A DNA stretch of 16,071 nucleotides, from positions 1 through 16,071 of the IMG/VR virus record IMGVR_UViG_2711768058_000013, one strand, 5' to 3'. Shown here one piece after another: positions 1,051 through 16,071 of this stretch. Position 1 is the first letter of the stretch, and each line of letters opens with the position of its first letter. Under the pieces are notes generated by a model. That model saw only the letters and a list, made by a program, of their open reading frames with translations. It did no database searches and was not told the origin of the DNA. Source of the stretch: a virus (lineage: Duplodnaviria; Heunggongvirae; Uroviricota; Caudoviricetes). The position numbers and the translations under genes are program-made.

Positions 1051-1200
1051 GGATCAGTAAGCGTAACTCTGGTAGGCTCACTCTGCTTTTGCGCTAAAGC
1101 AGTGGGCCGTGGTTCGCTTGTGACCAGTAAGCATGAGCGAATGGCTGGCAGGTGCTACCAACACCCACCAGCCGCCCATTTTCACAGCAGGAAACCGCCA

Positions 1201-1404
1201 TTACTGGCAGCGTCTGAATTTATTCCCGTACCCGCCGTTATCCTTCGCCAGACCCGCCAGAACTAACTGAGTCAGTATTAACTGGCACCGGGCTTCGCTT
1301 ACTCCGGTAGTTCTCGTCATCATGCATGGCGTTACCCACTTGTCAGCAGGTAAGAAATGAAGGACTGCGGCGGCGGTTTCTGTCATATCTTGCTGTTTTA
1401 GCAT
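1201..1404 (-). CDS. Hypothetical small prophage protein, possibly winged-helix-like
   Basis: 75-codon ORF in the track (1201..1428). The internal ATG at 1402-1404 is preceded by a GAAGGG Shine-Dalgarno-like sequence about 9 nt upstream; the ATG at 1428 has none. No recognisable family. Confidence 0.4.
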   Translation of the reverse strand: MLKQQDMTETAAAVLHFLPADKWVTPCMMTRTTGVSEARCQLILTQLVLAGLAKDNGGYGNKFRRCQ

Positions 1405-1520
1405 GTCTTTTTCCCTTCTGGTTAACATGACATACCAATAACTCTTGTCTAAAAAGCCAGCAAGATAAAAAGTCAGTATTCACGACCACCAGCGTGTTTA
1501 CTGTACTGCACCAAGTTTAC

Positions 1521-1548
1521 AGGTACAAAAAACCGCTCAGCGGCTGGT
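1521..1548 (-). terminator. Putative intrinsic terminator on the minus strand (hairpin plus T6)
   Basis: Read on the minus strand: AGCCGC-TGA-GCGGTT stem-loop (4 GC pairs plus G.U and A-T) followed by TTTTTT (complement of the A-run at 1527-1532). Lies between cassette 1 and the late-strand small gene. Confidence 0.35.
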
Positions 1549-1663
1549 TTAAGTTGTGTGGCGAAGTAACCACTCTTAACACGATACAATAGTTTTTGCG
1601 TACGCGTTAGTGGTTATGTAAACTTTCTCCATATAAAAACAGCAAAGAAGCGGATATTTTGAA

Positions 1664-2233
1664 ATGGCTACACTGGACGCATTCAGTAGAGTAATAACTC
1701 ATCATACTATTACGATCGATACACAATACCGTACACAGAAAATTGATGATAGCATCAGATCGAACTGTGTTTGCCCGGTACCAACAATGCGTGAACTTGC
1801 TTCTAAAATAGTACGTTGTAAAGCAATGATGCACAGTTATGAAAAAGGAGACTTAGTTTTAACTTTGCAAGATGTAATCTTCTTATCAAACAGAGCCGAT
1901 AAAAAACCCAGCCATCTTGGTCTTTTAATTAATGCTGTAGATAAAAATGGAAGCACTACTGTGTTAAAAAACATTAATACAGATGTTCGTACCGAAATAT
2001 CACCAAAACATGAGGAAGGTGAAGGTTACGAAGTTTCTTCTCATATGATTATTTCTCTAGACGGAAATATGCGAACCTATGACATGAGTTTTATGCCAAT
2101 ACCAGGAGTTTCCACAGCAAAAATAAATGGTTTCCTGAATAAAGTTCTCTTTAACGTAGCCAAAGATAATGAAGATATCTTTTCATGTAACACTTTAACA
2201 AATGAAGTATCAAGTTTAACAAAGAAAAAATAA
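1664..2233 (+). CDS. Hypothetical protein, AT-rich cargo (cassette 1, ORF A)
   Basis: 189-aa ORF, low GC compared with flanking phage genes, ATG at 1664, on the strand opposite to the flanking phage operon. No recognisable domain. Ends in a Lys-rich tail encoded by an A6 tract. Confidence 0.5.
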   Translation: MATLDAFSRVITHHTITIDTQYRTQKIDDSIRSNCVCPVPTMRELASKIVRCKAMMHSYEKGDLVLTLQDVIFLSNRADKKPSHLGLLINAVDKNGSTTVLKNINTDVRTEISPKHEEGEGYEVSSHMIISLDGNMRTYDMSFMPIPGVSTAKINGFLNKVLFNVAKDNEDIFSCNTLTNEVSSLTKKK

Positions 2234-2283
2234 AAGTATTATACAAGCCAGTCTTTGATATATCTGGAAAGTTAGATGAAGAT

Positions 2284-2691
2284 TTGTTCAATAAAATAAA
2301 TAAAGAAGGACTTTCTGATGTCGTTTTGGTAAAGAATGAATACAGAACTATTAATGCGCCAGATGTTAACGCGGCTATTATTCCTAAAGAAAGTACTTTA
2401 CGCTTAGTACCAAACCATGGCCCCAACAATGTCCTTGGATGGATAAAATCTGTCTCAAACTTCTTTAAAGAAGATAAAAATGGAGGTTATGACTTAATAA
2501 AAATAAAATTCAAAGAGCCAGAGACAGGATTCACAAGACAAGTTGACCTTCAAACTTCAAATGTAAGGCTCGATGGGCTGGAAAAAACATTTATCAAAAA
2601 GAGTGTAATAAATGGTTTTTCTTCGCGCTTAAAGGATTCTTATGATAGTATTAACATGGAGTTTGTGAATAAGATTATCGAGGTCATGTGA
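2284..2691 (+). CDS. Hypothetical protein (cassette 1, ORF B), possibly the frameshifted C-terminal part of ORF A
   Basis: 135-aa ORF with no ATG start (first start codon is TTG at 2284 with a weak RBS). Its frame is open back to 2206, overlapping the last 28 nt of ORF A. The stop at 2689-2691 is followed by GAGG and the ATG of ORF C. Confidence 0.45.
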   Translation: MFNKINKEGLSDVVLVKNEYRTINAPDVNAAIIPKESTLRLVPNHGPNNVLGWIKSVSNFFKEDKNGGYDLIKIKFKEPETGFTRQVDLQTSNVRLDGLEKTFIKKSVINGFSSRLKDSYDSINMEFVNKIIEVM

Positions 2692-2698
2692 GGCTAAT

Positions 2699-3274
2699 AT
2701 GATTAGTATATTTTCACATTTATTTAGACCGTTTGGTTACCTTTTTATTAAGGGAATTAGTGGTAAGTGCGCATACGATTTTTATGCACCTGCAGGGCTT
2801 GCTGTGATTTCTTTTTTTTACTTTTATTTATTTAAAATACCCACATCAGACCTACTAAAAGATGGCGGCTTTATTAAGTCTATATCTGGATTTGTATCAA
2901 ATCTGCCAGGTTTTTATATAGCAGCTCTTGCAGCAATAGCCACTTTCAACAGAGAACAAATTGACTACCCTCTGATAGGAACTAATGGCACGCCTTTTAT
3001 TAAAATTACACGAACAAAAGAAAATGGTAGAATTGTTGACACTCAAGAGAAACTTACCAGAAGATTATTTCTGTGCATGTTATTTTCATTTTTAACTGCC
3101 CTCAGCATATGCATAGTGATTTTCAACGCTTTTATCACACCACTAATAAACATACTGAATAATGATATAGCAAACTGGTGCTATATCATTATCTTTTTAT
3201 TCCTTACATGGCAAATGCTTGTTTCAACATTTTTTGGACTATACTATCTTGGTGATAGGATTCACATTAATTAA
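2699..3274 (+). CDS. Integral membrane protein, about four predicted TM helices (cassette 1, ORF C)
   Basis: 191-aa ORF with GAGG RBS 6-7 nt upstream of ATG 2699. Four long hydrophobic stretches (AGLAVISFFYFYLF; FYIAALAAIATF; LFLCMLFSFLTALSICIVIF; WCYIIIFLFLTWQMLVSTFFGLYYL). Its 3' end overlaps the convergent Q gene by 8 bp. Confidence 0.6.
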   Translation: MISIFSHLFRPFGYLFIKGISGKCAYDFYAPAGLAVISFFYFYLFKIPTSDLLKDGGFIKSISGFVSNLPGFYIAALAAIATFNREQIDYPLIGTNGTPFIKITRTKENGRIVDTQEKLTRRLFLCMLFSFLTALSICIVIFNAFITPLINILNNDIANWCYIIIFLFLTWQMLVSTFFGLYYLGDRIHIN

Positions 3275-3644
3275 CTACCATAATGGGGTTTATAGTTATT
3301 ATTACACCGCTGATAAACCCCATGGCAGTCTGCAATTCCTTCCTAATTGTGCCATCTGAACATCTTCTCTTCTTGGCAATAGTGCGTAATGAGATACCAA
3401 TAACAAAGTGAGCTATGATCAGCTCATATTCCTCTGGTTTATACTTTCGCAACCGAGCCACACAACCGTCTATCATGATGCCTTCATCATCATCACACTG
3501 GAGACGTGACTTTTTACCGTGTGGTAAAAGTCCCTTGAAACCAGCCGCTATCGGCTGCCAGTCCACACCACTATTTTCTGCTGCAGCCCATGCTCCCCAG
3601 CGGTCCAATACTTCATACATATCACGCATCAGCTTTCTCCACAA
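3267..3644 (-). CDS. Late-gene antitermination protein Q (QuuD-like short Q family)
   Basis: 125-aa ORF. The N-terminal WGAWAA motif, the Cys-containing middle and the C-terminal HTH-like segment resemble, as I recall it, the short Q antiterminators of E. coli prophages (DLP12 QuuD type). Last gene of the coupled minus-strand operon. Confidence 0.75.
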   Translation of the reverse strand: MWRKLMRDMYEVLDRWGAWAAAENSGVDWQPIAAGFKGLLPHGKKSRLQCDDDEGIMIDGCVARLRKYKPEEYELIIAHFVIGISLRTIAKKRRCSDGTIRKELQTAMGFISGVIITINPIMVVN

Positions 3645-3646
3645 AA

Positions 3647-4642
3647 TCAGGCCAGCACGCCAATTGCCAGCGCACGATCGATAAAACGAAATATCAGCTC
3701 CAGCTGGGAGCCATACTTCTCTTCAAATGCCACGGTATCCGCATGCAGCTCGTCGTGATGCTTTCTGCACAAAGGCAACACAAAAAGGTCATGCGCTTTT
3801 GTTCCCATTCCACCCTGACCGTGACCTATCAGGTGGTGGGGATCATCAGCGGGCTTTCCACAACATGCACACGGCTGTGTCTTAACCCAGCGCGTGTACT
3901 TTTCATTAACCCAGCGGCGACGTTTTGGGCGTAACATAAAAGACTCCGGCGACTCCGGATCCACTTTCAGCGCCAGCACCTTTTTCGCTTTATTCTGGAT
4001 GATGCTGGTGGCCGGAACCGAAGGAACAAGGTCACTCTCCCGGGTGACAGACGGCACAACAGGCTTCGGTAATCTCAGTGCCTTACGGGCTGCACTTTCA
4101 GGTAAGGCATCCGCCAGATCATTACGAACCAGCCACCAGCACAGTTCCGGCATTGTCACAACGTGACTGTCATCAAAACCGAGATCCCGACGCACGACAG
4201 ACAACACCCAGCGGGCACAGTTATCCGTTGCCATTGATTCCAGCCGTTCCGTGAACTGATCGCGCAGCTGGTTATCGCAGTGCCAGCACAGACGGATTGC
4301 GCCCGGCGCGTGACGCATTGTGGTCATGTTCTCGCTGTGCCAGTCGGAATGAGGCCACTGGCAGCCTTTTTCACGAAGTAACCAGCTTTCAAGACATTCC
4401 ACGCCACCAGCACGACGGATCACTGCCTCATTGCGGAACACGGCCCGAACGGCAGGATCATCCGCCAGCGGTTGTGATGCCGCCGGAACAGCACCACTGG
4501 CGAAAGATGAATAACGTTCCGGCTCAGGCTCCAGCAGGACACGCCCCTGCATAAACAGGGGCATCAGCTCTGAACCTGGTCTGAACAATACGATCCCCAT
4601 ACGCGGGGCAATTTCAGGGGTCAGTAGTGCTCTCACGGTCAC
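3647..4642 (-). CDS. DUF968-like prophage protein (YdfU family) with C-terminal Cys/His cluster
   Basis: 331-aa ORF with C-terminal CACCGKP...HHLIGHG...H...LCRKHHDELH metal-binding-like cluster. Sits between the KilA-N gene and Q as in Nin-region equivalents. Family name is from memory. Confidence 0.55.
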   Translation of the reverse strand: MTVRALLTPEIAPRMGIVLFRPGSELMPLFMQGRVLLEPEPERYSSFASGAVPAASQPLADDPAVRAVFRNEAVIRRAGGVECLESWLLREKGCQWPHSDWHSENMTTMRHAPGAIRLCWHCDNQLRDQFTERLESMATDNCARWVLSVVRRDLGFDDSHVVTMPELCWWLVRNDLADALPESAARKALRLPKPVVPSVTRESDLVPSVPATSIIQNKAKKVLALKVDPESPESFMLRPKRRRWVNEKYTRWVKTQPCACCGKPADDPHHLIGHGQGGMGTKAHDLFVLPLCRKHHDELHADTVAFEEKYGSQLELIFRFIDRALAIGVLA

Positions 4643-4643
4643 C

Positions 4644-5486
4644 TCAATGAACGGTATCGAGCAGCTTTAACAGCTCAGGGAATCGGGATTCGAAGAAATG
4701 CGGCTGCGTCTCGCGCGGATTTGCGGGACTGGTGATGTTCTTGCCAAACATGCAACCTTTCGCTGTCAGCGACCAGAATTTTTTGATGTTGTTAATCGCG
4801 GTACGGCTGTATCGTTCGCGTTGTTCAACGATCCCCAGCTTCGCCATCTGGTGATATGCCTGATTAGCCGTCAGGCGGATACCATACTGTTTCAGCAGTG
4901 CACTCAGTGACAGTGTAGGACGACTTGAGCCATCGTGTGCATCAGCAGGAGCATCAATGGCATAGCGCGGTGCCAGATTCGGTAAGCCAACAGCCTCCTG
5001 AAGTTTCTGACAGGCACCAAGCACTGATGAGTTAGACAGATTTAACTCCCGGCGCATAAAGTCCAGCAGAATCACGCCAGCCTGCATCTTGTCAGCAGCC
5101 TGCCAGGATAATTTTTCCGGTGCGCTGGTTACCATGTCGAAAGTGCGGATCACCTTCAGATGGAATGACGGGCTGATCCACATTGCATAGGCATACACCA
5201 GGTCCTTACAGACATATGTTCCGCCATTCCGCCCTTCTATTTTACTGACAGGTTTACTACCCAAATTTTGGGTAGTTTCATTGAATGAACCGACACCCAG
5301 ATTTTGGGTATCGATCAATTCCTGAACCAGCTCAGTAATCTGTTGGCTGGAAAGAAACTTTCCCGGCTCCTTGGTTCTGGCATTTGCACCAGATGCTACT
5401 GCTGCGCGATGCAGATCGTTCAGGCTGTAACGCCCATAAGCATCACGACGAACTTCAATACCATCAATGACCATCAGATTATTCAT
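4644..5486 (-). CDS. KilA-N domain-containing protein
   Basis: 280-aa ORF. N-terminal region (SLNDLHRAA..., GGTYVCKDLVYAYAMWISPSFHLKVIR) resembles the KilA-N DNA-binding domain. Tightly packed with neighbouring genes. Confidence 0.6.
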   Translation of the reverse strand: MNNLMVIDGIEVRRDAYGRYSLNDLHRAAVASGANARTKEPGKFLSSQQITELVQELIDTQNLGVGSFNETTQNLGSKPVSKIEGRNGGTYVCKDLVYAYAMWISPSFHLKVIRTFDMVTSAPEKLSWQAADKMQAGVILLDFMRRELNLSNSSVLGACQKLQEAVGLPNLAPRYAIDAPADAHDGSSRPTLSLSALLKQYGIRLTANQAYHQMAKLGIVEQRERYSRTAINNIKKFWSLTAKGCMFGKNITSPANPRETQPHFFESRFPELLKLLDTVH

Positions 5487-5505
5487 ACTTCGTTTCTCCT
5501 CTTAA

Positions 5506-5895
5506 TCAGGCGGCTGCACCCGCCGTTTTCTCGTACTTACTGATAGTGATCTCGACCTTCCCTTCCGGGATAACCGGTCCCCACTCCACCAGCATTCTTT
5601 TCACCTGACTGTCGTCTTCCCACACCCCCGCGTGGGTCAGGGCGTCAAACAGCGCCTTGTTATAGTTGTCCAGATCGCGGATCCGGTTATCCGGAGGAAA
5701 CAACACGATCTCCACTGAAGCAGGTGCCGACGTTGGTTTTGGCAGACGACGTAACTGCTCAACTATTGCTGCACACGCCGCGCTCTGGAATTTTCGCCCC
5801 GCCGCGCTTATCAGGCTCTTACCAGCAAACGCCCCTTTGTTGGGGTGTCGCCAGTACGTGTTCACGCTGGGCGGAAAAGGCAGGATCAGCTTCAT
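5506..5895 (-). CDS. rusA: Holliday junction resolvase RusA
   Basis: 129-aa ORF with the RusA-type motif RIRDLDNYNKALFDALTHAGVWEDDSQV (catalytic Asp cluster). Start ATG overlaps the stop of the upstream gene (ATGA). Confidence 0.8.
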   Translation of the reverse strand: MKLILPFPPSVNTYWRHPNKGAFAGKSLISAAGRKFQSAACAAIVEQLRRLPKPTSAPASVEIVLFPPDNRIRDLDNYNKALFDALTHAGVWEDDSQVKRMLVEWGPVIPEGKVEITISKYEKTAGAAA

Positions 5896-6218
5896 ACTTT
5901 CAGGCCCCTCTCATGTAACCAGTGGACTGCACGCAGTCTGGCGTTTTCCTCACCGGCAAGCAGTGCGCGGATAATCCCGGCTGCCTCACTGTCGTCATCC
6001 TTCACTGTGGTATGAAGCGTGATACCCCGGGCCACGCCACGCTTTATCGTGATGACGCCTTTTTTCTCCAGTGCGCGAAGATGCTCCACCGCTGCATTCA
6101 CCGAACGGTATCCCAGCATGGTTGCCACCTCCTGATTGGTTGGCGGGAAACCACGTTCTTTCTGATAAGAAATCAGCATATCCAGCACCTGCTGCTGGCA
6201 TTGAGTTAACGTCGTCAT
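5892..6218 (-). CDS. LexA-type DNA-binding domain protein, no S24 peptidase domain
   Basis: 108 aa from ATG 6216-6218, which overlaps the TAA of the upstream gene (TAATG). LTQCQQQVLDMLISYQKERGFPPTNQEVATMLGYRSVNAAVEHLRALEKKGVITI matches the LexA N-terminal winged-helix pattern. The track ORF extends to 6251 without an ATG. Confidence 0.6.
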   Translation of the reverse strand: MTTLTQCQQQVLDMLISYQKERGFPPTNQEVATMLGYRSVNAAVEHLRALEKKGVITIKRGVARGITLHTTVKDDDSEAAGIIRALLAGEENARLRAVHWLHERGLKV

Positions 6219-6712
6219 TAAGCCCCCACGTAATTCCCTGACAGATACCACTCTTCACCCGATGCAGCACGCTTGCTGCTTTTCCGTAAGCACTGCTCAC
6301 GACGAGCCAGAAAATTGTTTCGTTCTGGCTGGGAGTGGCTTTCTCGGAATGCCGCCATCCACACCGTTGCAGCACGACGGTATAAGCCCCTGGACTCCAG
6401 TTCTTCAGCCTGGCGGGTCAGGCACAAAATCACCCGTGGATCGTTAGTGCCGACATAGAAATTGCGCACAGATCTGGTTTCACGAACTGGTTGTGGCTCC
6501 GGCCCCTGCGCTCTCTCAGTCAGGCGCGGGAAATGTCTGCGTGTATCTCCTTCACAACGGTGAGCCACACTCCCACTCTGACGTAACTTGCTTGCTGACT
6601 GCAGAACGCGCTGCCGTGAGTAATCTGCAAAAGCATCCGCAATGTCTCCGGAAGTACAGCCCGGATGGGCTTCAATGAATTTCTGAACTTCATTCAAAAG
6701 ACTCATGCTCAC
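6218..6712 (-). CDS. yfdN: PerC-family transcriptional regulator (yfdN-like)
   Basis: 164-aa ORF. AEELESRGLYRRAATVWMAAF...RREQCLRK resembles the PerC/Pch signature (AExLExxGLWRRAAxRW). 164 aa equals the length I recall for K-12 YfdN. Start overlaps the stop of the O-like gene. Confidence 0.5.
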   Translation of the reverse strand: MSMSLLNEVQKFIEAHPGCTSGDIADAFADYSRQRVLQSASKLRQSGSVAHRCEGDTRRHFPRLTERAQGPEPQPVRETRSVRNFYVGTNDPRVILCLTRQAEELESRGLYRRAATVWMAAFRESHSQPERNNFLARREQCLRKSSKRAASGEEWYLSGNYVGA

Positions 6713-7650
6713 CCCCTGAATCCTGCCGGGATCTGGCTGTAGTCCACATTGTCGTAACTGGCTTTGAAGTACGGGTCTTCGCGTTTTTCTGTGTACGTGC
6801 TGACGGACGGCGATAAGCGCAGGGAAAGCTCATCCCATTTTTCCCGCAGCTTCGACGGGCTGAGCACGTTACGGCACCAGAACGGATCGCGGCTGACGCG
6901 GCTGTACATCTCGCAGATTTGTTTGTGAGTACGACCATCCTGCACACACATCAGGCGAATTTCGTTTGCCCAGGCTGTCCAGTTCGGTTCTTTGGGACGA
7001 ACCACCTCGCCGTCACATTCGGCGGCCTGCTCGTACAGGGCGATGATTCTTTTCCAGAGCCACTGTGCGCAGGTCAAATCATCCTGCGTTCCCCACTGGC
7101 GCTTTTTAGGGCTGAATACAACCGCATCAGGATGGCGAGTTAAAAACTCCTGTTCAGCCGTCTGCGTGTCCGGTTGCGAAGCGTCCGGACGAGAAGTTTT
7201 TTTATCTGACGGATCATGTTTTGATTTTACTGACGGATCCCCGCCAGATTCTGACGGGTGAAAACCCGCTTTTTTGCCAGATTTCGACGCATCAAATTTT
7301 GACGGGTCAGATTTTGATGTGTCAGATTTTGACGGGTCATAATCTGACAGTTGAGAAAATGCCGCTGCCTGAAGCTTCGCAACGTTAAGCTGATAAACAT
7401 TCGACGCATTGCGGTTACCCTGGCGACGCGCCTTACGCGTTAACCAGCCTTCTGCTTCCAGCCGTGCGATAGCCGTTCTGACGGTACTCATCCCCGCGCC
7501 AATCTGACGGGCAATAGTTTCAATTGATGGCCAGCACACACCTTCGTCATTACTGAAATCAGCCAGGCGGGCCATAATTGCCACGCTGGATAATTTCATG
7601 CCTGATGCAGCGCAACCATCCCATACATAGCCGGTTAATTTAGTGCTCAT
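6709..7650 (-). CDS. Phage replication initiator, O-like (yfdO-like), with internal origin iterons
   Basis: 313-aa ORF with N-terminal winged-helix (SSVAIMARLADFSNDEGVCWPSIETIARQIGAGMSTVRTAIARLEAEGWL), a central low-complexity K/S/D/P-rich linker encoded by DNA iterons, and a C-terminal domain. Analogous to lambda O, where ori lies inside the gene. Confidence 0.7.
   Translation of the reverse strand: MSTKLTGYVWDGCAASGMKLSSVAIMARLADFSNDEGVCWPSIETIARQIGAGMSTVRTAIARLEAEGWLTRKARRQGNRNASNVYQLNVAKLQAAAFSQLSDYDPSKSDTSKSDPSKFDASKSGKKAGFHPSESGGDPSVKSKHDPSDKKTSRPDASQPDTQTAEQEFLTRHPDAVVFSPKKRQWGTQDDLTCAQWLWKRIIALYEQAAECDGEVVRPKEPNWTAWANEIRLMCVQDGRTHKQICEMYSRVSRDPFWCRNVLSPSKLREKWDELSLRLSPSVSTYTEKREDPYFKASYDNVDYSQIPAGFRG
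7204..7352. repeat. Iteron array, about 8 direct repeats of a 15-bp unit (consensus near GATTTTGACGGGTCA); putative prophage origin
   Basis: Copies include atctgacggatca, ttttactgacggatcc, agattctgacgggtg, agatttcgacgcatca, aattttgacgggtcag, attttgatgtgtcag, attttgacgggtcat, aatctgacagttg. Located inside the O-like coding sequence. Confidence 0.65.
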
Positions 7651-7998
7651 GACCGACCTCTACTTCCCTGAATTTACGACGAAACTGTTCGAGCGGGCTG
7701 AAGCACTCATGCTCATAGCCTTCGCGGAGGTAGATAACTCGTTGTGTTTCCGGCTCCCAACGAATGACTCTGACGGGCACTCCGTAGTGATCTTTGAACC
7801 AGCGGTTAACTTGTCGCAAAGGACTGTCTCCTTCTGCCGGTTGAAATCACCCACAGCCCACTCAGCAAAGCTGTGGGTTACAATTTCCCTGTCACCTGGT
7901 ACATTAACTGCATAGCAATACTCCACCTTCGCTTTTCCACCCGGTACAGGAAGCGCAATCAGTTGCGAGCGACGGTAGTGTGTTGTTAAACTGTTCAT
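7640..7998 (-). pseudogene. Small gene split between two reading frames (frameshifted gene or two nested small genes)
   Basis: Frame A: ATG 7996-7998 overlaps the stop of the upstream CII-like gene and runs to 7660 (112 aa, C-terminal half low-complexity). Frame B: open from 7846, AAGGAGA Shine-Dalgarno (complement of 7827-7833) plus TTG 7817-7819, stop TAA 7640-7642 overlapping codons 3-4 of the O-like gene. Both frames are translationally coupled to a neighbour. Confidence 0.4.
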
Positions 7999-8603
7999 GC
8001 GTTAGTTTCTCCACAGTCACGACACGCCACGGCGCCCGGAGCTGCACACTCGCGGGCGTCATTACTTTCTGAAATGCAAAAGATTTTGTAGACCAGTGCT
8101 GCATGCTCCTGCAGCTTCGAAATTGAGAGATACAGCTCGTCGTTAATTGCTGTCTTCTCATGCGGTTCCACCACACCGTCTTCGATTGCCGAACGAATCT
8201 GTCTGGAATAACTGCCAATCTGTTCAATGACTTCCAGCAGGCGCTGGTTAATATCGGCGTTGTCCACATCCTCGACGTCAGGAAGAGACACAAAGACGCC
8301 ATTTGCAGACTGCGCCACAGCGTCAGCAATGAAGTGAGTTCCACCAGCACGTTGCAAAATCATTGCCCATCCCAGCGGGAAAATCTGATCGCCATCGGCA
8401 CGAAGGCGGTTAAATAATGCGTTTTCTGTTACATCCAGCCAGTCAGCTGCTTCAGCGTAACCACCCGGCAACGCTGCGATAGTTTTTCTGACAGCTTTCA
8501 CGTACCACTCAGGCTGTTTTTCTACTTTCCAGTGATGCTTACCCACGGTTAGCCTCATCGTTCTGTGGTTTCTGTTAATCGATTTATCCATTAGATTTTT
8601 CAT
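7995..8603 (-). CDS. CII-like lysogeny regulatory protein (CP76/YdaT-type), putative
   Basis: About 200 aa. Sits immediately downstream of the cro-like gene, overlapping it, and upstream of the replication gene, the canonical cII position. ATG at 8603 or 8591; the track ORF extends to 8660. Family assignment is from weak recollection only. Confidence 0.45.
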
Positions 8604-8784
8604 AAAGCTCAGGTTTAAATGGCAACCGTCCGCAAGTTCTATATGCAGCTTCTGCTGCACGTCCTTTTGGAATTAACTGGCCCGGACGGTTTCGCCACTG
8701 ATAAACGGCTTCAGTTGTTATGCCGAAAAAAGCAGCAACTTTCTCAATACTGCCGAAGTAGCTTTCGATATCGTCAGTTGTCAT
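8584..8784 (-). CDS. cro: Cro-type HTH repressor (Cro/YdaS-like)
   Basis: 66-aa ORF, divergent from the cI-like repressor across a 97-bp operator region. HTH-like segment FFGITTEAVYQWRNR. Confidence 0.7.
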   Translation of the reverse strand: MTTDDIESYFGSIEKVAAFFGITTEAVYQWRNRPGQLIPKGRAAEAAYRTCGRLPFKPELYEKSNG

Positions 8785-8881
8785 ACGCCCTCCAAACTAA
8801 GTTTTATTAGATGCTAATTACAAATCTATCTTTGGTCAATAAAAACTAAGATTACTTAGCAATTCAAGAAATGGTGCTCCT
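8785..8881. promoter_or_regulatory. OR-like divergent promoter/operator region between cro and cI
   Basis: 97-bp AT-rich intergenic region. Operator-like repeats AACTAAG at 8795-8801 and 8844-8850; the second lies in the palindrome CTAAG-ATTA-CTTAG (8846-8859). The same heptamer recurs downstream of cI. Confidence 0.6.
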
Positions 8882-9508
8882 ATGGAAACGGTTGGTCAGC
8901 GTATAAAAGCTCTGAGAAGAGTTACCGGAACGTCCCAGAAAGAATTGGGTAAATTTTGTGGAGTAAGCGACGTTGCTGTGGGGTACTGGGAGAAAGACAT
9001 CAATACCCCTGGTGGGGAGGCACTTTCGAAATTAGCGAAGTTCTTCAATACGTCAATAGATTACATTCTTTATGGTGCTGAGTTTGAAGGCAAACTCGTC
9101 ACAAACATGCGCAGAGTTCCTGTAATATCGTGGGTTCAGGCTGGGCAGTTTACTGAGTGCAGGGCAGCAGAAGTGTTTAGTGAAGTGGACAAGTGGGTAG
9201 ATACATCATTAAAGATTGGTGATAACTCATTTGCATTAGAGGTTAAAGGTGACTCCATGACTAACCCTAATGGCCTCCCAACAATACCAGAAGGCGCAAC
9301 AGTGATTGTAGATCCAGATGCAGAACCTCGTCATGGAAAAATAGTCATCGCTCGACTTGATGGAACAAACGAAGCTACAGTAAAAAAATTAGTCATCGAT
9401 GGCCCTCAAAAGTTTTTAGTGCCATTAAATCCTCGGTATCCCAACATCCCTATCAATGGTAATTGCCTTATCATTGGTGTAGTCAAAGGAGTTCAATACG
9501 AACTCTAA
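8882..9508 (+). CDS. cI: CI-type prophage repressor (XRE HTH plus S24 LexA-like autopeptidase domain)
   Basis: 208-aa ORF. N-terminal HTH (QRIKALRRVTGTSQKELGKFCGVSDVAVGYWE), C-terminal S24 motifs with catalytic Ser in GDSM and Lys in ATVKKL. Divergent from cro. Confidence 0.85.
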   Translation: METVGQRIKALRRVTGTSQKELGKFCGVSDVAVGYWEKDINTPGGEALSKLAKFFNTSIDYILYGAEFEGKLVTNMRRVPVISWVQAGQFTECRAAEVFSEVDKWVDTSLKIGDNSFALEVKGDSMTNPNGLPTIPEGATVIVDPDAEPRHGKIVIARLDGTNEATVKKLVIDGPQKFLVPLNPRYPNIPINGNCLIIGVVKGVQYEL

Positions 9509-9517
9509 GACCTCTCT

Positions 9518-9590
9518 TCTCTAACTAAGGCACCGAACTAAGAAAAGTTTGGTGTTTTCTCTTGCCATAATAACTAAGTTAAGTTAGATT
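9518..9590. promoter_or_regulatory. OL-like operator cluster downstream of cI
   Basis: Three further copies of AACTAAG (9523-9529, 9536-9542, 9572-9578) in the AT-rich spacer between the cI stop and the next plus-strand ORF, in the position equivalent to lambda OL/PL. Confidence 0.45.
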
Positions 9591-9693
9591 TTATATCAAA
9601 AATAACGAACAGGCAGGACGCCCACGAAGTAGCCGCCTGGGGCATATGAAGTCCAGGATGATTCGTTGAGTCATGTTGTGCCACTAGGCACTC

Positions 9694-9990
9694 ATGTTAA
9701 AGCAGGTGTATGAAATGAAAGTCCAGATTTTAAACAATAGTGGTGAAGTCGTTTGGTCATACGACATAGCCGCCCATGTAGATCAGAGCGGCGATAGCTG
9801 GGCCAATGGGAAACATCAGATTATGGCTGGAGTTGTGTTCTCTTTACGCCGTGCTTTGGAACAGGCTGAAGTATTTCCATCAGACCCTGAATGGAAATGG
9901 CCTTTTTCTATTTGTCCAAATTCGGAGAGCACATTTCAGAAAATTGGTCAGAAAGTCGCACTCGAAGAGCATCAGCCAACTGTTTCCTGA
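9694..9990 (+). CDS. Hypothetical protein, first gene of the putative leftward early operon
   Basis: 98-aa ORF. The in-frame ATG at 9715 has a better RBS (AGGTG 6 nt upstream) and may be the true start. No recognisable family. Confidence 0.5.
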   Translation: MLKQVYEMKVQILNNSGEVVWSYDIAAHVDQSGDSWANGKHQIMAGVVFSLRRALEQAEVFPSDPEWKWPFSICPNSESTFQKIGQKVALEEHQPTVS

Positions 9991-10003
9991 TTTTTTCAGG
10001 TAA

Positions 10004-10153
10004 CTAGTCGGCATCGCAGAAACAACAACGCTCGATCATGTTGAAAGCCGATTCGTAGAACTGTTTCTGCTGAGTGTCGCTGAGACAGGAAAAGAGCGAC
10101 GTTACGATGATTTTATTAATTGCATTATCAAGTTCTTTTTCATCAAAAGTCAT
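10004..10153 (-). CDS. Possible small protein (49 aa) not in the ORF track
   Basis: Manual translation of the minus strand: MTFDEKELDNAINKIIVTSLFSCLSDTQQKQFYESAFNMIERCCFCDAD. AAGGA Shine-Dalgarno 7 nt upstream of ATG (complement of 10161-10165). Below the usual length cutoff. Confidence 0.3.
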   Translation of the reverse strand: MTFDEKELDNAINKIIVTSLFSCLSDTQQKQFYESAFNMIERCCFCDAD

Positions 10154-10408
10154 TTGATTTTCCTTTTATGTATACGGGCTTAAAAGGATACCACCGAGCC
10201 TGAAGTGGTGAAAAGACAGGCACATAACAGCTAAGTATTTTCAACCAGAGAGAATCCTTAGCGTTGTGGTGAATGCGGCTCAGCGCACGCGGGTTAAGGT
10301 TGAGGCTGACAGTCGACCTTCTGTGGATACCCACCCGTCTGGTGTGCAACCTTCGCCAGGCACCGGGAGGCACCCGGCACCACAACTTTATGCTGTGTGT
10401 AGTCCTGG

Positions 10409-10455
10409 CGGTACCAGTTTGTACCCTTGCTTCCGGCTGGTACCGTCCTTTTTAC
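10409..10455 (+). terminator. Putative intrinsic terminator or structured RNA element
   Basis: Inverted repeat CGGTACCAG (10409-10417) / CTGGTACCG (10437-10445) followed by TTTTT (10449-10453). The 19-nt loop is long for a terminator. Lies in a GC-rich segment with no convincing coding frame. Confidence 0.35.
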
Positions 10456-10590
10456 AAAACAGAGAAGAGCATCACCGGACGACGGGCTCATAACCCAATC
10501 CATCCGGGCGGCTGCCACCGCAGGTGTTCTTCTCTGTTTTGTGGAGAAACTAATCGGCCTTGCAGGGTCGATATGATGAGGAGCAGCAAA

Positions 10591-10953
10591 ATGGCTAGTG
10601 AACGCAGTACTGATGTGCAGGCATTTATCGGGGAGCTGGACGGCGGCGTATTTGAAACCAAAATCGGCGCAGTTCTCAGTGAAGTCGCTTCCGGTGTGAT
10701 GAACACGAAAACCAAAGGTAAGGTCTCACTCAACCTGGAAATCGAACCATTTGATGAGAACCGTGTGAAAATCAAACACAAACTCTCATATGTTCGCCCG
10801 ACTAACCGCGGGAAAATTTCCGAAGAAGACACCACCGAAACGCCGATGTATGTCAATCGCGGTGGTCGCCTGACTATTCTGCAGGAAGACCAGGGACAAT
10901 TACTGACTCTTGCCGGTGAACCTGACGGAAAACTACGCGCAGCAGGTCATTAA
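10591..10953 (+). CDS. yfdP: YfdP-like prophage protein, function unknown
   Basis: ATG 10591 with GAGGAG Shine-Dalgarno 7 nt upstream gives 120 aa, the length I recall for K-12 CPS-53 YfdP, and it sits directly upstream of a yfdQ-like gene. The track ORF start at 10273 lies in non-coding-looking GC-rich sequence. Confidence 0.6.
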   Translation: MASERSTDVQAFIGELDGGVFETKIGAVLSEVASGVMNTKTKGKVSLNLEIEPFDENRVKIKHKLSYVRPTNRGKISEEDTTETPMYVNRGGRLTILQEDQGQLLTLAGEPDGKLRAAGH

Positions 10954-11018
10954 TATCGTTCTTAATTAACTGATTATTTATCTCATCACTGAATATCTTT
11001 ATATAGTGAGGACTTATT

Positions 11019-11843
11019 ATGTCTCAGAACTTAGACGCAACCGCAATTAATCAAATCCATGCCCTTATTTCTGCTCAGGGTGTTAATGAAATTATCAGTA
11101 AGATTGGTGCCGATGCTGTGGCATTGCCTGAGAATTTCCGCATTCATGATCTGGAAAAATTTAATTTAAATCGTTTCCGTTTCCGTGGTGCGCTTTCCAC
11201 TGCCAGCATCGATGACTTTACCCGTTATTCTAAAGATCTTGCAGATGAAGGCACCCGCTGCTTTATCGATGCCGATAATATGCGTGCCGTCAGTGTGCTT
11301 AACCTGGGTACCATTGATGAGCCAGGTCACGCAGATAACACTGCCACTCTCAAACTGAAAAAGACAGCACCGTTCTCTGCCCTGTTGTCTGTTAACGGCG
11401 AGCGTAACTCCCAGAAGTCACTGGCAGAATGGATTGAAGACTGGGCCGACTACCTTGTGGGCTTTGATGCTAATGGTGACGCTATTCAGGCAACAAAAGC
11501 GGCTGCGGCAGTCCGTAAAATCACGATTGAAGCAAACCAGACCGCTGATTTTGAAGATAATGACTTCAGCGGCAAACGCTCCCTGATGGAATCTGTCGAA
11601 GCGAAGACCAAAGACATTATGCCAGTGGCATTTGAATTTAAATGCGTTCCGTTTGAAGGTCTGAAAGAACGTCCGTTTAAATTACGCCTCAGCATTATCA
11701 CTGGCGATCGTCCTGTACTGGTTCTGCGCATTATTCAGCTGGAAGCGGTGCAGGAAGATATGGCTAACGAATTTCGTGATCTGCTTGTTGAGAAATTCAA
11801 AGACAGCAAAGTAGAAACCTTTATTGGTACTTTCACCGCCTGA
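11019..11843 (+). CDS. yfdQ: YfdQ-like protein (DUF2303 family), function unknown
   Basis: 274-aa ORF with GAGGA RBS. Length and position (between yfdP-like and yfdR-like) match my recollection of K-12 CPS-53 yfdQ. Confidence 0.7.
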
Positions 11844-11855
11844 TTTCATTACTGC

Positions 11856-11880
11856 AAATGCCCCTGCGGGGGCATTTATG
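11856..11880 (+). terminator. Putative intrinsic terminator downstream of the yfdQ-like gene
   Basis: AAATGCCCC-TGCG-GGGGCATTT: 9-bp stem with GC-rich core and short U-tract (TTTAT), 13 nt after the stop codon. Confidence 0.4.
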
Positions 11881-11970
11881 GAAACGTAATTAACTCAATA
11901 ATCACCGGATGGTGATGGCTTCCTTTTACCCAAACTCAGCGCGGTGCAGCGCATATACGTGGAGAACAAA

Positions 11971-12507
11971 ATGTCATTTATTAAAACTTTTTCCGGGAAG
12001 CATTTTTATTATGACAAGATAAATAAAGACGACATCGTGATTAACGATATCGCGGTTTCCCTTTCAAATATCTGTCGCTTTGCAGGGCATCTTTCACACT
12101 TCTACAGCGTCGCCCAACATGCGGTGCTTTGCAGCCAGCTGGTGCCGCAGGAATTTGCTTTTGAAGCGTTAATGCATGATGCAACAGAAGCATATTGCCA
12201 GGACATCCCTGCACCACTGAAACGACTTCTTCCTGACTATAAACGGATGGAAGAAAAAATAGACGCCGTAATCCGTGAGAAATACGGGTTACCTCCTGTT
12301 ATGAGCACGCCAGTGAAATATGCCGATCTCATTATGCTGGCAACCGAACGTCGCGATCTCGGGCTTGATGATGGCTCTTTCTGGCCTGTACTGGAAGGCA
12401 TCCCGCCAACAGAGATGTTCAAAGTTATTCCACTGTCGCCAGGCCATGCCTACGGGATGTTTATGGAACGCTTTAACGGGTTATCGGAGTTACGCAAATA
12501 CGCATGA
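11971..12507 (+). CDS. yfdR: HD-domain phosphohydrolase (YfdR-like 5'-deoxynucleotidase family)
   Basis: ATG 11971 with GGAGA RBS gives 178 aa. HD motif (SVAQHAV...ALMHDATEAY). The length I recall for K-12 YfdR is also 178 aa. The track ORF starts at GTG 11944. Confidence 0.7.
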   Translation: MSFIKTFSGKHFYYDKINKDDIVINDIAVSLSNICRFAGHLSHFYSVAQHAVLCSQLVPQEFAFEALMHDATEAYCQDIPAPLKRLLPDYKRMEEKIDAVIREKYGLPPVMSTPVKYADLIMLATERRDLGLDDGSFWPVLEGIPPTEMFKVIPLSPGHAYGMFMERFNGLSELRKYA

Positions 12508-12541
12508 GTCTTTCAACTGCACAACCACTGGAGGGATAGCA

Positions 12542-12736
12542 ATGAACAACTTAATGACAACTAAACAGGTCGCCGACTTCTGTGGCGTTTCAGTATCAAC
12601 AGTACTTCGTTGGAACAGCGTAAACAGGAGGACTGGCCAGAAATACAGACCAGATTTTCCAGATCCTGATATAAAATCCTGCCCAAATAAATGGGCATCA
12701 CACAAGATTTATAGGTTTGCGGGTGTTATTGAGTAA
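12542..12736 (+). CDS. Excisionase / AlpA-family HTH protein (Xis-like)
   Basis: 64 aa from ATG 12542 with GGAGGG RBS 6 nt upstream. TTKQVADFCGVSVSTVLRW is the typical AlpA/Xis (MerR-like) HTH signature. Confidence 0.7.
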   Translation: MNNLMTTKQVADFCGVSVSTVLRWNSVNRRTGQKYRPDFPDPDIKSCPNKWASHKIYRFAGVIE

Positions 12737-12750
12737 GGTAGGTAGCACAG

Positions 12751-12900
12751 ATGTTAACTGACGCTTCTATAACACAAAGCAAACCTAATCTGACTGCACG
12801 CCCTACGCCAGAAACAGATCAAAGTTTAAAATATGCACCGTCCGGAGTGACGATTTTTGTAATATACAGTAGCCTCTATGGGTCATGTGACAGTGTATAG
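12751..12900 (+). pseudogene. Possible remnant of an integrase 5' end (49-aa ORF)
   Basis: Manual translation MLTDASITQSKPNLTARPTPE...: the first 12 residues fit the conserved N-terminus of P4-type integrases (L-T-D-x-x-I-x-x-x-K-P), after which similarity is lost. Lies 15 bp downstream of the excisionase. Confidence 0.3.
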
Positions 12901-12911
12901 GAAAAACAGAA

Positions 12912-13745
12912 GTGATCGATGACCCGTTACCAACGAATTGGAAAGATCTCCAGAACGGAGTCCAACGCATCTTCCGCAATGTTGGCTTATATGCAGAAGT
13001 CGAAGCCAATGTAGAGACTCCACGTGGTTCGGTGAATGTGGATGTTCTCGCAATAGATCCCAAGAGCGTAGATAAAATCAGATACATAGTAGAATGTAAA
13101 AACTGGAGTAACTCTGTGCCTCAGAGCGTAGTCCATTCGTTCACTACGGTGATGCATGAAACTGGGGCTAACATTGGTTTTATTATTTCAAAACATGGGC
13201 TTCAGCAAGGAGCAAAGCAGTATACACAAAACACAAATATCACTGGTATGACATATCTAGAATTTCAAAAGAGATATTTTGAGGCTTGGTGGAAAAGATA
13301 TTTTTGCCCACTTATAGGTGATGCTGCTGACAAGGTTCTTTTATACACTGAAGAATTCAACCATCAGCGAGACCGAGCTTATAGGAATCTTACCCCACAT
13401 AATAAAAAGATGTTTGATGATTTAAGGAGACAGGAAGGTGGCTCAATAATGATTTTATCGATGTTCAACTACATGTCGATATCGAGAGGACTAAAAACAG
13501 GAACATTTTTAAACGTTCCAAAAAGCCTAGATGACTTTAAAGCTATAGTGCTCTCTCAAATAACTCCTCATATCCAATGGAATTGCGACACATTCCGTGA
13601 ACTGTTGAATACGATTTTAAAATACTTAGCAGATATTAAATCAGAATTTGAAATGATATTCGGGGGAGATATTTTTGAACAAACAGATAATATCAGCGGA
13701 GTAACTCTTGATGGTCCTCCTTTGGGAGGGGATATTTATCTATAA
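12912..13745 (+). CDS. Mrr-like PD-(D/E)xK restriction-endonuclease-domain protein with unknown C-terminal domain (cassette 2, gene 1)
   Basis: 277-aa ORF with GTG start. N-terminal NVDVLAID...YIVECKNW...VVHSFTTVMHETGANIGFIISKHGLQQGAKQY matches the Mrr catalytic-domain pattern (D...D...(E/Q)xK...F...G.FI...A). The C-terminal 170 aa are AT-rich and unrecognised. Confidence 0.65.
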   Translation: MIDDPLPTNWKDLQNGVQRIFRNVGLYAEVEANVETPRGSVNVDVLAIDPKSVDKIRYIVECKNWSNSVPQSVVHSFTTVMHETGANIGFIISKHGLQQGAKQYTQNTNITGMTYLEFQKRYFEAWWKRYFCPLIGDAADKVLLYTEEFNHQRDRAYRNLTPHNKKMFDDLRRQEGGSIMILSMFNYMSISRGLKTGTFLNVPKSLDDFKAIVLSQITPHIQWNCDTFRELLNTILKYLADIKSEFEMIFGGDIFEQTDNISGVTLDGPPLGGDIYL

Positions 13746-13835
13746 TTATTAAACTACGCTTAACATTGTCGAATGTTCGATTCATCACTCGAAGCAGAAA
13801 TAAATCAACCTTTTATTTCTAATTAGGAATTTTTA

Positions 13836-14777
13836 ATGGCTACATTTTTCATCAATAACAAAAAAATTTCGATTAGCTCTCTGAAATATAATAGTAAAGA
13901 AATTCAATTAGAAGCAATGCGTAGTTGGTTTCTTGAAAATTATGAAGATCCTGCAAACAGTTGCCCTTATGAGTCACGAGAAGGGGGGTATATTTATATT
14001 TATGGAGGACCATATGATGCAAGTGAAGTGCTTCAAGAAAAATTTGGCGGCTATGTAAAAGATGATTATATTCAAGAGATTGTCGATGATTTACAAGAAA
14101 TTTGTTATGAATGGTCCGGTAACTCCAGTAACGTAGAGGGATGGTATGATGAAGATTTATATAATGTTGTTACAACATCAAAAGAACCTTATACTAACTT
14201 CTACGAAAACATTGCTAAAATACGTTCACTTTCCACACTTAATATTAGTGAAAAAGATAAATCTCATTTTCTTGGCATTTTATACACAAATATTATCACT
14301 GCCCTAGAAACGTTATATGTTGAGCTATTTATCAATTCTATAGAAAAAGATAATTCTTTTTTCATAAATTATATACAAACAGGAACCGGAAACTTTAAAG
14401 CAAGTAAGTCATTGATTTTAAATGCATTCAAGCATGAGTCAATAGTAGAATTAAGAGAACGGTTAGTAAAAGAAATTAAAGAGCACTTAATAAATTCTAG
14501 TTGGCATAGCACTGAACAAGTTATTAAGCGTTATAAATCAACATTTGGTATTAAGGTACAAAGTGACTGGCCTATATCAGAGATTGAACATGCAACTATA
14601 ATTCGAAATCATTTAATCCATCGGGGGGGCAAGGACAAAAATGGAGATCCAGTAACAATTACAGAAGATAATCTAAATGAGTTACTTGAACTATCAGTAT
14701 TACTATGTGAGAAATTGCATACCAGTTTGAACAAAGTAGTAGATGGAAAAAATGGTGGCAGCGAAAGCGAATTTTGA
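13836..14777 (+). CDS. Hypothetical protein with C-terminal HEPN-like R-N-x-x-x-H motif (cassette 2, gene 2)
   Basis: 313-aa ORF, very AT-rich, AGGAA RBS 8 nt upstream of ATG. C-terminal ATIIRNHLIHRGG contains R-N-H-L-I-H, which fits the HEPN RNase signature. No other recognisable domain. Confidence 0.6.
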   Translation: MATFFINNKKISISSLKYNSKEIQLEAMRSWFLENYEDPANSCPYESREGGYIYIYGGPYDASEVLQEKFGGYVKDDYIQEIVDDLQEICYEWSGNSSNVEGWYDEDLYNVVTTSKEPYTNFYENIAKIRSLSTLNISEKDKSHFLGILYTNIITALETLYVELFINSIEKDNSFFINYIQTGTGNFKASKSLILNAFKHESIVELRERLVKEIKEHLINSSWHSTEQVIKRYKSTFGIKVQSDWPISEIEHATIIRNHLIHRGGKDKNGDPVTITEDNLNELLELSVLLCEKLHTSLNKVVDGKNGGSESEF

Positions 14778-14847
14778 TATGAAAGCCTTTGGAATGACAG
14801 CCAAGACATTTAACCAGATTCATCTGCTCATTAATCAAAGCAAATTG

Positions 14848-16071
14848 TCAGTTTGAGTCTAAACTGACACAAGTAACGAGTGATTCAACCCTCTCCCACC
14901 ACGCTTGGTAGGCTTTACGCTGTTCTTCTAGATAATTGCTCTTGTCATAAACTTGCCATACCCCTGGCAGTTTATGACCGAGCATAATTTCTGCGATATG
15001 AGGCGCAGTAAGATCAGAAAAATTTGTTCGAGCTGTACGTCTCAAGTCATGAAGAGACCAATGAGGGAATTGATATCCTAAACGCCGCCATGCGTACTGC
15101 ATTAAATTGTAAGGCAGCGACTGCAATGATGTCCGACCAACGGGTTCCCTGCTTCCTTCCTTAGTAAAAAGCATATCGGAACCATTGTTCATAGAGATAG
15201 CGTACTTTATAAGCTCTTCAACCGGTTCAATAATGGGCCGCTTTAGCGGTTCGCCTGTTATCTCCCCAGTCTTATGTCGTTCTGGTGGTACAGTCCATAC
15301 TTTATTAATGAAATCAAAATCGTCCACCCGGGCGGTAATTAGCTCTGAACTACGGCAACCAAAATGCAGCAATAGTTTAATGAAGGCCCGGTATTTAGGA
15401 ACCATTCGAGAACCATCGATCGCAGCATAAAGGATTTTAATTTCATCGTGTGTCAGAAACCGTTTCTTCTGACCTTTACGGATATCCATATCTTTACCCG
15501 TGATGTCCGACAGCGGGCGAGTTTCAATAAGCTTTCTCTTATACGCCCAGACATGGGCCTGCTTTGCGTTAATTAGCAATCGGTCTGCTATTGCTGGAGT
15601 CTTAGTGCTAAGAGGCTCCAGGACTTCTAACCAATCATGCAATGTAGCTGCATCGTGAGGGATATTCCCGATTTTAGAGAACAGGTGCAGCTCAAACGAG
15701 CGGAGTATCTGTTCAGAACCCTTTTTATTTTTTACACAATATGCTTCATACCAGGCAAGGATCACAGACTCTACCGTCATGGCTTCAGTAGCTTTTCGTT
15801 TTTCAGCCTGCTTGACCAATCGTGGATTACGGTTTGACTCGAGTTCACCACGGAGACGGATAACTTCTTCTCTGGCCTCTTTTAATCCAGTTGCCGGGTA
15901 AGTTCCGATATCAAGACGCTCACCTTTCCCTGCCCATTGATAACGATATTGGAACACTACGCGACCTTTCGGGGATACTCTGACAGACAGACCATCACGA
16001 TCGGATTTTACCAAAACCTTATCACGTTCCTTTCCAACGACTGAACGCAACCACGCATCAGACAGCGCCAT
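14848..16071 (-). CDS. int: Tyrosine recombinase / phage integrase, P4-type
   Basis: 407-aa ORF whose ATG is the last three bases of the window. N-terminal arm-binding-type region (LSDAWLRSV...VRVSPKGRVVFQYRYQWAGKGERLDIGTYP), catalytic region with HDLRRTARTNF and C-terminal MLGHKLPGVWQVYDKSNY containing the presumptive catalytic Tyr. Confidence 0.9.
   Translation of the reverse strand: MALSDAWLRSVVGKERDKVLVKSDRDGLSVRVSPKGRVVFQYRYQWAGKGERLDIGTYPATGLKEAREEVIRLRGELESNRNPRLVKQAEKRKATEAMTVESVILAWYEAYCVKNKKGSEQILRSFELHLFSKIGNIPHDAATLHDWLEVLEPLSTKTPAIADRLLINAKQAHVWAYKRKLIETRPLSDITGKDMDIRKGQKKRFLTHDEIKILYAAIDGSRMVPKYRAFIKLLLHFGCRSSELITARVDDFDFINKVWTVPPERHKTGEITGEPLKRPIIEPVEELIKYAISMNNGSDMLFTKEGSREPVGRTSLQSLPYNLMQYAWRRLGYQFPHWSLHDLRRTARTNFSDLTAPHIAEIMLGHKLPGVWQVYDKSNYLEEQRKAYQAWWERVESLVTCVSLDSN

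Follow-up and report, generated by a model that had tools for sequence, protein, structure and literature searches.

The window analysed here is a stretch of 16,071 nucleotides from a virus of the Caudoviricetes (IMG/VR record IMGVR_UViG_2711768058_000013, positions 1 to 16,071), which originates from an Escherichia coli lambdoid prophage inserted beside yjjG. Two plus-strand open reading frames (ORFs), referred to as gene 1 (12912..13745) and gene 2 (13836..14777), occupy the slot between the excisionase and integrase genes of this prophage. A previous interpretation made from the letters alone (the sequence-only reading) proposed that these genes encode an Mrr-like DNA nuclease and a HEPN-motif protein, and that the pair is an undescribed defence module. 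Our analysis presents the domain content, DNA-level architecture and distribution of both genes, which are probably independent cassettes.

The slot is bordered on the left by the gene for a 63-amino-acid (aa) excisionase (12545..12736, plus strand; phrog_1553, E-value 4.2e-35, with weak HTH_17/MerR matches) and on the right by a complete tyrosine integrase gene on the minus strand (14848..16071, 407 aa), which is convergent on the gene pair. The coordinates, flanking gene identities and convergent orientation given by the sequence-only reading were confirmed, as was the lower guanine-plus-cytosine (GC) content of the cargo: 0.386 for gene 1 and 0.316 for gene 2, against 0.42-0.46 for the excisionase gene, yfdR and the integrase gene. 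Window positions 12500-14900 were 100% identical to E. coli strain LZHX12 (NZ_CP155555), in which gene 1 is annotated as 'restriction endonuclease' and gene 2 as 'hypothetical protein', flanked by yfdR and a tyrosine integrase.

The same integrase, at 95-99% identity, was present in approximately 700 of 5426 complete E. coli genomes, and the gene pair in only seven. In three sibling prophages with this integrase, likewise located beside yjjG, the slot equivalent to window 12843-14805 was occupied by unrelated ORFans (413 aa at locus L149, 3583-4824; 331 aa at L150, 3618-4613; and 271 aa at L151, 4044-4859; L numbers denote the loci compared in this study). Gene content thus varies at one slot with a shared integrase and insertion site, in agreement with the earlier view of a variable cargo position. 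Neither Pfam nor PADLOC provided an identity for the three ORFans, and this integrase-proximal hotspot is therefore a reservoir of unknown cargo.

Gene 1 encodes a protein of 277 aa from a GTG start, which was confirmed because the resulting MIDDPLP N-terminus is common to all homologues. The Mrr_cat nuclease core (aa 9-112; 12936..13247) matched Pfam PF04471 with an E-value of 1.5e-12 (48.1 bits, cut-off 21), and the same domain was present in all 120 of the homologues listed. The motifs DVLAID and IVECK begin at aa 44 and 59, and the catalytic residues D44 (13041-13043) and E61-x-K63 (13092-13100) were invariant among 30 diverse homologues. In the AlphaFold model (predicted local distance difference test, pLDDT, 90.5; predicted template modelling score, pTM, 0.87), an alpha/beta nuclease core is followed by five helices; the core has the restriction-endonuclease-like fold, and the best structural matches were PD-(D/E)xK nucleases. 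The family is compact (270-280 aa, with full-length identities of 60-86% to gene 1) and was found in Enterobacterales, Pseudomonas, Vibrio, Kangiella, Psychrobacter and even Paraburkholderia. The full length of the protein is under strong purifying selection, and no decayed copies were seen among the homologues.

The remainder of gene 1 (aa 113-277; 13248..13742) forms a helical domain modelled at a pLDDT of approximately 90. Identity to gene 1 decreased along the protein from 80% (aa 1-112) to 74% (aa 113-160, still highly conserved) and 51% (aa 161-277, variable). Neither Pfam nor the PDB contained a relative of these C-terminal 165 residues. When 1.84 billion representative proteins were searched exhaustively, the domain was detected in only 33 clusters, nearly always after an N-terminus of approximately 112 aa in the full-length proteins, and the domain is therefore regarded as private to this family. 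The description of gene 1 as an Mrr-type nuclease fused to an unrecognised domain was thereby upheld. Gene 1 resembles Mrr and other type IV enzymes in its Mrr_cat family, its D...ExK motif and its character as a solitary nuclease without a cognate methyltransferase, and differs in its reversed domain order, with Mrr_cat at the N-terminus and the family-specific helical domain at the C-terminus. The Mrr_N winged-helix DNA-binding domain gave no match in gene 1, so that the architecture is not that of E. coli Mrr. The uncharacterised archaeal Mrr-like protein AF1548 (PDB 1y88) shared 15% identity and left the C-terminal ~130 residues of gene 1 uncovered. Sequence searches of the PDB using single sequences and family profiles produced no significant match for either gene 1 or gene 2 (lowest E-value, 0.094).

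Gene 2 encodes a protein of 313 aa (phrog_17908, of unknown function, E-value 4e-116) with two domains. The N-terminal HEPN/RES-NTD1 domain (hereafter NTD1; aa 26-90; 13911..14105) matched Pfam HEPN_RES_NTD1 (PF18870) with an E-value of 1.5e-6 and 29.0 bits, barely over the cut-off of 27.4; homologues (~290-340 aa) have precomputed matches to PF18870, in many cases, and to PF18735 (HEPN_RiboL-PSP), and one is named 'HEPN-associated N-terminal domain-containing protein'. The helical HEPN domain follows (approximately aa 136-306; 14241..14753), and its Rx4H motif, R257-N-H-L-I-H262-R263, is located at 14604-14624. An alignment of 35 sequences, with identities to gene 2 down to 29%, revealed that R257, H262 and R263 (RNHLIHR) are invariant, together with the NTD1 core residues W31, F32, P39, P44, E49-G-G-Y52 and G57-G-P59, that is, the pattern WF...P...P....EGGY....GGP. 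Fold matches identified an all-alpha HEPN fold. Gene 2 is thus a HEPN protein, as had been read; the string IRNHLIHRGG, with which the protein was said to end, does occur (aa 256-265) but lies ~50 residues before the C-terminus.

The actual C-terminus of gene 2 is an ESEF tail (aa 310-313; 14763..14774), in which an acidic residue precedes Phe at the free carboxy-terminus. In the model this tail is flexible (pLDDT <50), and a terminal F was present in 91 of 113 full-length homologues, nearly all of which have [D/E]-F behind a disordered linker. Terminal F was also observed in 6 of 12 inspected NTD1 proteins with quite different C-terminal regions (PPF, LPF, SDF and MLF), drawn from loci including L060, L063, L067, L078, L083 and L095, and the tail thus seems to be linked to NTD1 rather than to the HEPN domain. 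Such acidic-Phe tails recall the C-terminal tips of SSB and T7 gp2.5. Loci L060-L096 contain NTD1 fused to other C-terminal regions (e.g. L060, 5902-6666; L063, 5860-6702); many alpha-proteobacterial NTD1 proteins possess a helical segment bearing the motif 'IGHNxPP' and, after it, hydrophobic helices of membrane-like character. These fusions suggest that effector swapping by NTD1 is wider than HEPN and RES. A Streptomyces protein (L086, 5031-5912) has, on the N-terminal side of NTD1, a region with an RNSIAH motif of the HEPN type and possibly a nuclease-like segment at the N-terminus.

At the DNA level, the two genes lie in an AT-rich cassette (12843..14805, plus strand, GC 0.348) that aligned as a single blastn block and moves as a unit within one sub-clade. 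The block was 79.6% identical to a Morganella locus (L013) and 80.0% identical to a metagenomic contig (L155), and these two were 87.4% identical to each other over 2087 bp; the flanks were unrelated, and the Morganella cassette is hosted by a prophage with a different integrase arrangement. Beyond this sub-clade, the block separates into two. Window 12844-13753, comprising the leader and gene 1 to 8 bp past the stop codon, matched solo gene 1 loci at 74-84% nucleotide identity, and window 13843-14795 matched a solo gene 2 from Citrobacter at 73.5%. Homology with the solo gene 1 loci begins at 12844-12848 (L098, L008) or at 12889 (L097, L103). The 5' leader of gene 1 (12843..12911, plus strand) includes a hairpin followed by a T-run (~12837-12865), and its alignment (A3) contains the conserved stretch GTGACGAnnTTTGTATTAT...TGCATAGGAAAAnCAGAA ahead of the start codon. 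Because this leader is conserved among gene 1 loci, it suggests that gene 1 has its own putative promoter and ribosome-binding site. The intergenic spacer (13746..13835, plus strand, GC 0.28) is 90 bp here and 115 bp in Morganella, and is poorly conserved except for the AGGA ribosome-binding site region. Gene 2 may rely on the gene 1 promoter, since it has no conserved upstream region of its own. A promoter scan of the cassette gave a count not above that of shuffled controls, and no convincing promoter or terminator was found in the spacer; terminator-like matches in the cassette exceeded the control (7 versus 1.5 expected), none of them clearly dividing the two genes.

One carrier shows the two genes in different states. 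In strain LR-64-1 (NZ_AP027588, L152), gene 2 has a 1-bp frameshift in the NTD1 core (codon ~52, approximately window 13986) and is annotated as a truncated ORF of 249 aa, and gene 1 is intact with three substitutions. This strain also has an IS2 element immediately before the gene 1 leader, at the equivalent of window 12820-12825.

The co-occurrence of the two genes was evaluated by tblastn of both proteins against 148 loci, of which 71 carried full-length gene 2. Scanning species-representative genomes with an alignment of gene 2 homologues yielded 80 loci, IMG/VR scans contributed a further 33 for gene 2 and 16 for gene 1, and exact-protein look-ups supplied additional loci. Among the 71 loci, gene 1 was present only at the E. 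coli locus and at Morganella-type loci, and the ~68 loci that had been identified by a gene 2 homologue all lacked it within 6 kb. Of 28 gene 1 loci, likewise, only the Morganella-type ones contained gene 2. Gene 1 homologues without gene 2 occurred in ~14 distinct contexts, which included sites adjoining lambda P or Gabija, one flanking a lambda-family portal gene, the Q-lysis moron slot and the Kangiella chromosome. The nearest relative of the E. coli gene 1 was a solo copy (85.2%), the other paired copies being more distant (81.9-83.0%), and solo and paired copies were interleaved at the same level of divergence. Neighbour clustering over the 71 loci gave gene 2 no conserved partner, and its commonest neighbour was a 330-aa protein at 10 loci; gene 1 neighbours differed in every context, with no recurrent partner.

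The absence of co-occurrence in the ~68 loci, the solo contexts, the separate DNA homology blocks, the closest relative being a solo copy and the frameshift in LR-64-1 together argue that gene 1 and gene 2 are probably independent cassettes. The two-gene module of the sequence-only reading was not sustained; co-occurrence, which that reading had itself named as a ground for refutation, was confined to three contexts within one sub-clade. In scans of this kind, neighbours in a prophage cargo slot do not amount to evidence of a system, and the co-occurrence test rejected the pairing here. A toxin-antitoxin reading of the pair was excluded, as each gene is stably carried alone. The type VII toxin-antitoxin system HepT/MntA was also considered and rejected; no nucleotidyltransferase ORF is adjacent in the window, and no neighbour was conserved in the 71 loci. 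A tendency of gene 1 to adjoin HEPN proteins was considered in view of a 170-aa neighbour with an RNKISH motif beside Gabija (L097, 4235-4747) and a 373-aa neighbour with an RNDFIH motif (L155, 5088-6209). This remained a motif-level hint, as profile comparison gave no significant relationship between these neighbours and the gene 2 family (probability 0.5-1.4%).

Both families occur in defence-rich surroundings. The neighbours of gene 1 homologues included Gabija, RosmerTA, PDC-S67, PDC-S31, and HNH and type I restriction-modification genes, and those of gene 2 homologues included Thoeris and AbiE, with other copies at prophage ends. Both families were also present on IMG/VR proviral contigs. 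No PADLOC or NCBIfam system matched either protein, consistent with the claim that the pair is not a named system. The PADLOC 2.0 candidate PDC-S02 was rejected for gene 1, as the match (E-value 1.7e-5, 22 bits) covered aa 43-108 against profile positions 236-302 of 346, corresponding to the shared nuclease core only. The named PADLOC 2.0 HEPN systems (PD-T4-2, PD-T4-5, PD-T7-3, ApeA, AbiJ and others) were likewise rejected for gene 2, which gave only a weak match to RTasHEPN (E-value 5e-4, 18 bits, aa 205-265).

At the level of architecture, moreover, gene 2 had been described before. Anantharaman et al. (2013) defined HEPN/RES-NTD1, with KPK_1764 of Klebsiella pneumoniae 342 as the prototype, described its fusion to MAE_28990-group HEPN, RES and other effectors, and predicted an Abi-like function (PMC3710099). 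Gene 2 has the same order, with an NTD1 of ~95 aa followed by a MAE_28990/RiboL-PSP-group HEPN domain with Rx4H; the KPK_1764 architecture is known computationally only, and the likeness is one of architecture. The related combination of NTD1 with RES, termed aRES, has been validated: proteins with PF18870 and a RES domain deplete NAD+ and arrest growth on infection, which protects E. coli from diverse phages; they have no operonic partners and are located in defence islands (Osterman et al. 2026; bioRxiv 10.64898/2026.01.28.702374). Gene 2 and aRES are alike as stand-alone two-domain proteins that combine a PF18870 NTD1 with a toxic effector, but the aRES effector is a RES NAD+ phosphorylase and that of gene 2 is a HEPN RNase-type domain (Rx4H). 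No RES domain match was obtained in gene 2, whose C-terminal domain is HEPN, and gene 2 is therefore not a member of aRES; because its effector is of the HEPN RNase type, its predicted target is RNA rather than NAD+. Judged by domain order, gene 2 is the predicted HEPN-effector counterpart of aRES and probably shares its logic. A functional analogue is HepS of the Gifsy-1 prophage, a single-protein HEPN abortive infection system and anticodon nuclease that is triggered by a siphovirus tail-tip protein (PMC13043305). Both are single prophage HEPN proteins, but HepS has no NTD1 and no detectable sequence relationship to gene 2.

We consider it reasonably probable that the slot holds two self-contained, mobile single-gene cassettes stacked between the excisionase and integrase genes, each of which most likely functions on its own against phages or in superinfection exclusion. 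Gene 2 would be a one-protein RNase of the abortive-infection type, in which NTD1 serves as a regulatory or sensing module and holds the C-terminal HEPN domain inactive until an infection cue is received; the released RNase would then cleave cellular or phage RNA, leading to growth arrest and aborted infection. This would follow the logic of aRES, except that RNA would be cleaved instead of NAD+ being broken down, and also that of the prophage protein HepS. Gene 1 would act as a stand-alone Mrr-type DNA endonuclease without a partner methyltransferase, and its variable helical C-terminal domain would most likely restrain or target the nuclease, so that modified or otherwise non-self DNA is attacked in a type IV-like manner or activity follows a phage cue.

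Several points weigh against this proposal. Only the weak domain-level PADLOC 2.0 matches described above were obtained for either protein, and neither gene is common in sequenced phage isolates: gene 1 had no match in isolated phage genomes, and gene 2 had two distant ones. A solitary Mrr-type nuclease would also need some means of sparing the host chromosome. Within gene 2, conservation is highest in NTD1 (65% identity versus 39% for the HEPN part), which is unusual for a domain that recognises fast-evolving phage proteins; the function of NTD1 may instead be oligomerisation or the binding of a conserved host factor or ligand, roles that its conservation fits better than the binding of a variable phage protein. 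The arrangement of the pair in the same order, with similar spacing (90-115 bp) and ~80-87% nucleotide identity in three unrelated contexts is explained by linkage, since genes 90 bp apart would travel together, but cooperation would explain it as well.

Cooperation within the sub-clade, in which HEPN would sense infection and arrest translation as the Mrr nuclease degrades DNA, or one protein would regulate the other, is one alternative, and we judge it unlikely. The 2-kb block keeps its orientation between three unrelated flanks, every context with gene 2 at >=75% identity (Escherichia, Morganella and contig L155) carries gene 1, gene 2 possibly depends on the gene 1 promoter, and fusions and operons of restriction endonucleases with HEPN are common in general (PMC3710099). 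However, both families are overwhelmingly unlinked beyond the sub-clade, solo and paired copies of gene 1 interleave at one level of divergence, the closest solo gene 2 (Citrobacter, 68% identity) has nothing Mrr-like nearby, and LR-64-1 keeps gene 1 intact though its gene 2 is frameshifted. In other lineages, each gene also has unrelated neighbours: the HEPN gene precedes that of the 330-aa protein at 10 loci, and the Mrr gene adjoins various ORFans. A more specific form of cooperation would make NTD1 and the near-universal C-terminal [D/E]-Phe tail a previously unrecognised switch shared by NTD1 effectors: the docked tail would keep HEPN, RES and membrane-type effectors off, phage single-strand-binding or replisome proteins would displace it, and the linked Mrr nuclease would be a second, cooperating effector on exposed phage DNA. 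This idea is highly doubtful.

One or both genes could also serve prophage biology, through lysogeny maintenance, turnover of host RNA or DNA at induction or the toxin of an addiction module, or could be decaying or silent AT-rich cargo; the rarity of the pair, the partly degraded state of the prophage in relatives (in LZHX12, the lysozyme is truncated and replication genes are deleted) and the LR-64-1 carrier, with its frameshifted gene 2 and IS2 next to gene 1, are compatible with this. Such a role appears improbable against two intact ORFs in the window, strong purifying selection on both families with catalytic residues invariant across distant taxa, no conserved adjacent antitoxin-like partner for either gene, and the defence-rich neighbourhoods. 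Gene 1 could alternatively be a free-standing selfish PD-(D/E)xK endonuclease of the homing type, a minimal cassette spreading between prophages with gene 2 as an unrelated neighbour. Its cassette bounds are very tight, from ~68 bp upstream to ~8 bp past the stop, and are reused in many insertion contexts at diverse intergenic phage positions (next to lambda P, beside the portal gene, in the Q-lysis region and in the excisionase-integrase slot); its unusually high conservation across bacterial orders suggests recent spread. A homing enzyme is expected at one cognate site, but the insertion sites of gene 1 are mutually unrelated and extend to non-phage chromosomal sites and defence islands, such as those beside Gabija and on the Kangiella chromosome. 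The invariant catalytic residues, the full-length purifying selection without decayed copies, and the variable C-terminal domain on a constant nuclease core, which fits a sensor or specificity role, further make a selfish element quite improbable. Two independent defence cassettes remain the preferred explanation.

If either gene protects against phage, the defence repertoire of E. coli prophages would gain a small stand-alone system. Gene 2 would then show that NTD1 is a general effector-swappable platform, with RES for NAD+, HEPN for RNA and possibly membrane effectors, and the trigger of aRES-type proteins would become approachable by comparison with gene 2. Gene 1 would represent an Mrr-type nuclease that is compact (277 aa), has been transferred very widely and possesses a regulatory domain exclusive to its family; it would also raise the question of how a nuclease without a methyltransferase is kept safe.

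Several genes near the homologues were also recorded. In L003-L006, L020 and L125-L129 (Aeromonas, Erwinia and proviral contigs), the conserved 330-aa protein (e.g. L003, 6979-7971) is encoded 15 bp downstream of the HEPN homologue; it had no Pfam or PADLOC identity save a faint GNAT-like stretch near the C-terminus. In Aeromonas, the HEPN gene is preceded by one for a protein of 138 aa with a weak PD-Lambda-2_B-like match. This arrangement may be a module of another kind, in which the linkage is genuine. Next to gene 1 homologues, L098 (6055-6948) encodes a protein of 297 aa with caspase-like H...C motifs and a weak Peptidase_C13 match (E-value 0.003), and L155 (1348-2781) a protein of 477 aa with the motif ...EFYVECK. 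Together with the RNKISH and RNDFIH proteins of L097 and L155, these uncharacterised neighbours are possible further defence candidates.

Elsewhere in the prophage, strain LZHX12 lacks ~1.3 kb of the replication region at window 6114-7412 (the O-like gene at 6709-7650 and its neighbours), the remnants of which are annotated there as pseudogenes; because of this loss, the window is taken to come from a less degraded copy of the prophage. A second AT-rich island (1664-3274, plus strand, GC 0.33) encodes the PADLOC candidate system PDC-M53. Its M53B gene (2699-3274) is intact (E-value 1.7e-54), and the loss of 1 bp from a poly-A run at approximately 2224-2231 splits M53A into two ORFs, 1664-2233 and 2284-2691, as judged against strain LZHX12, in which M53A is a single gene of 301 aa.

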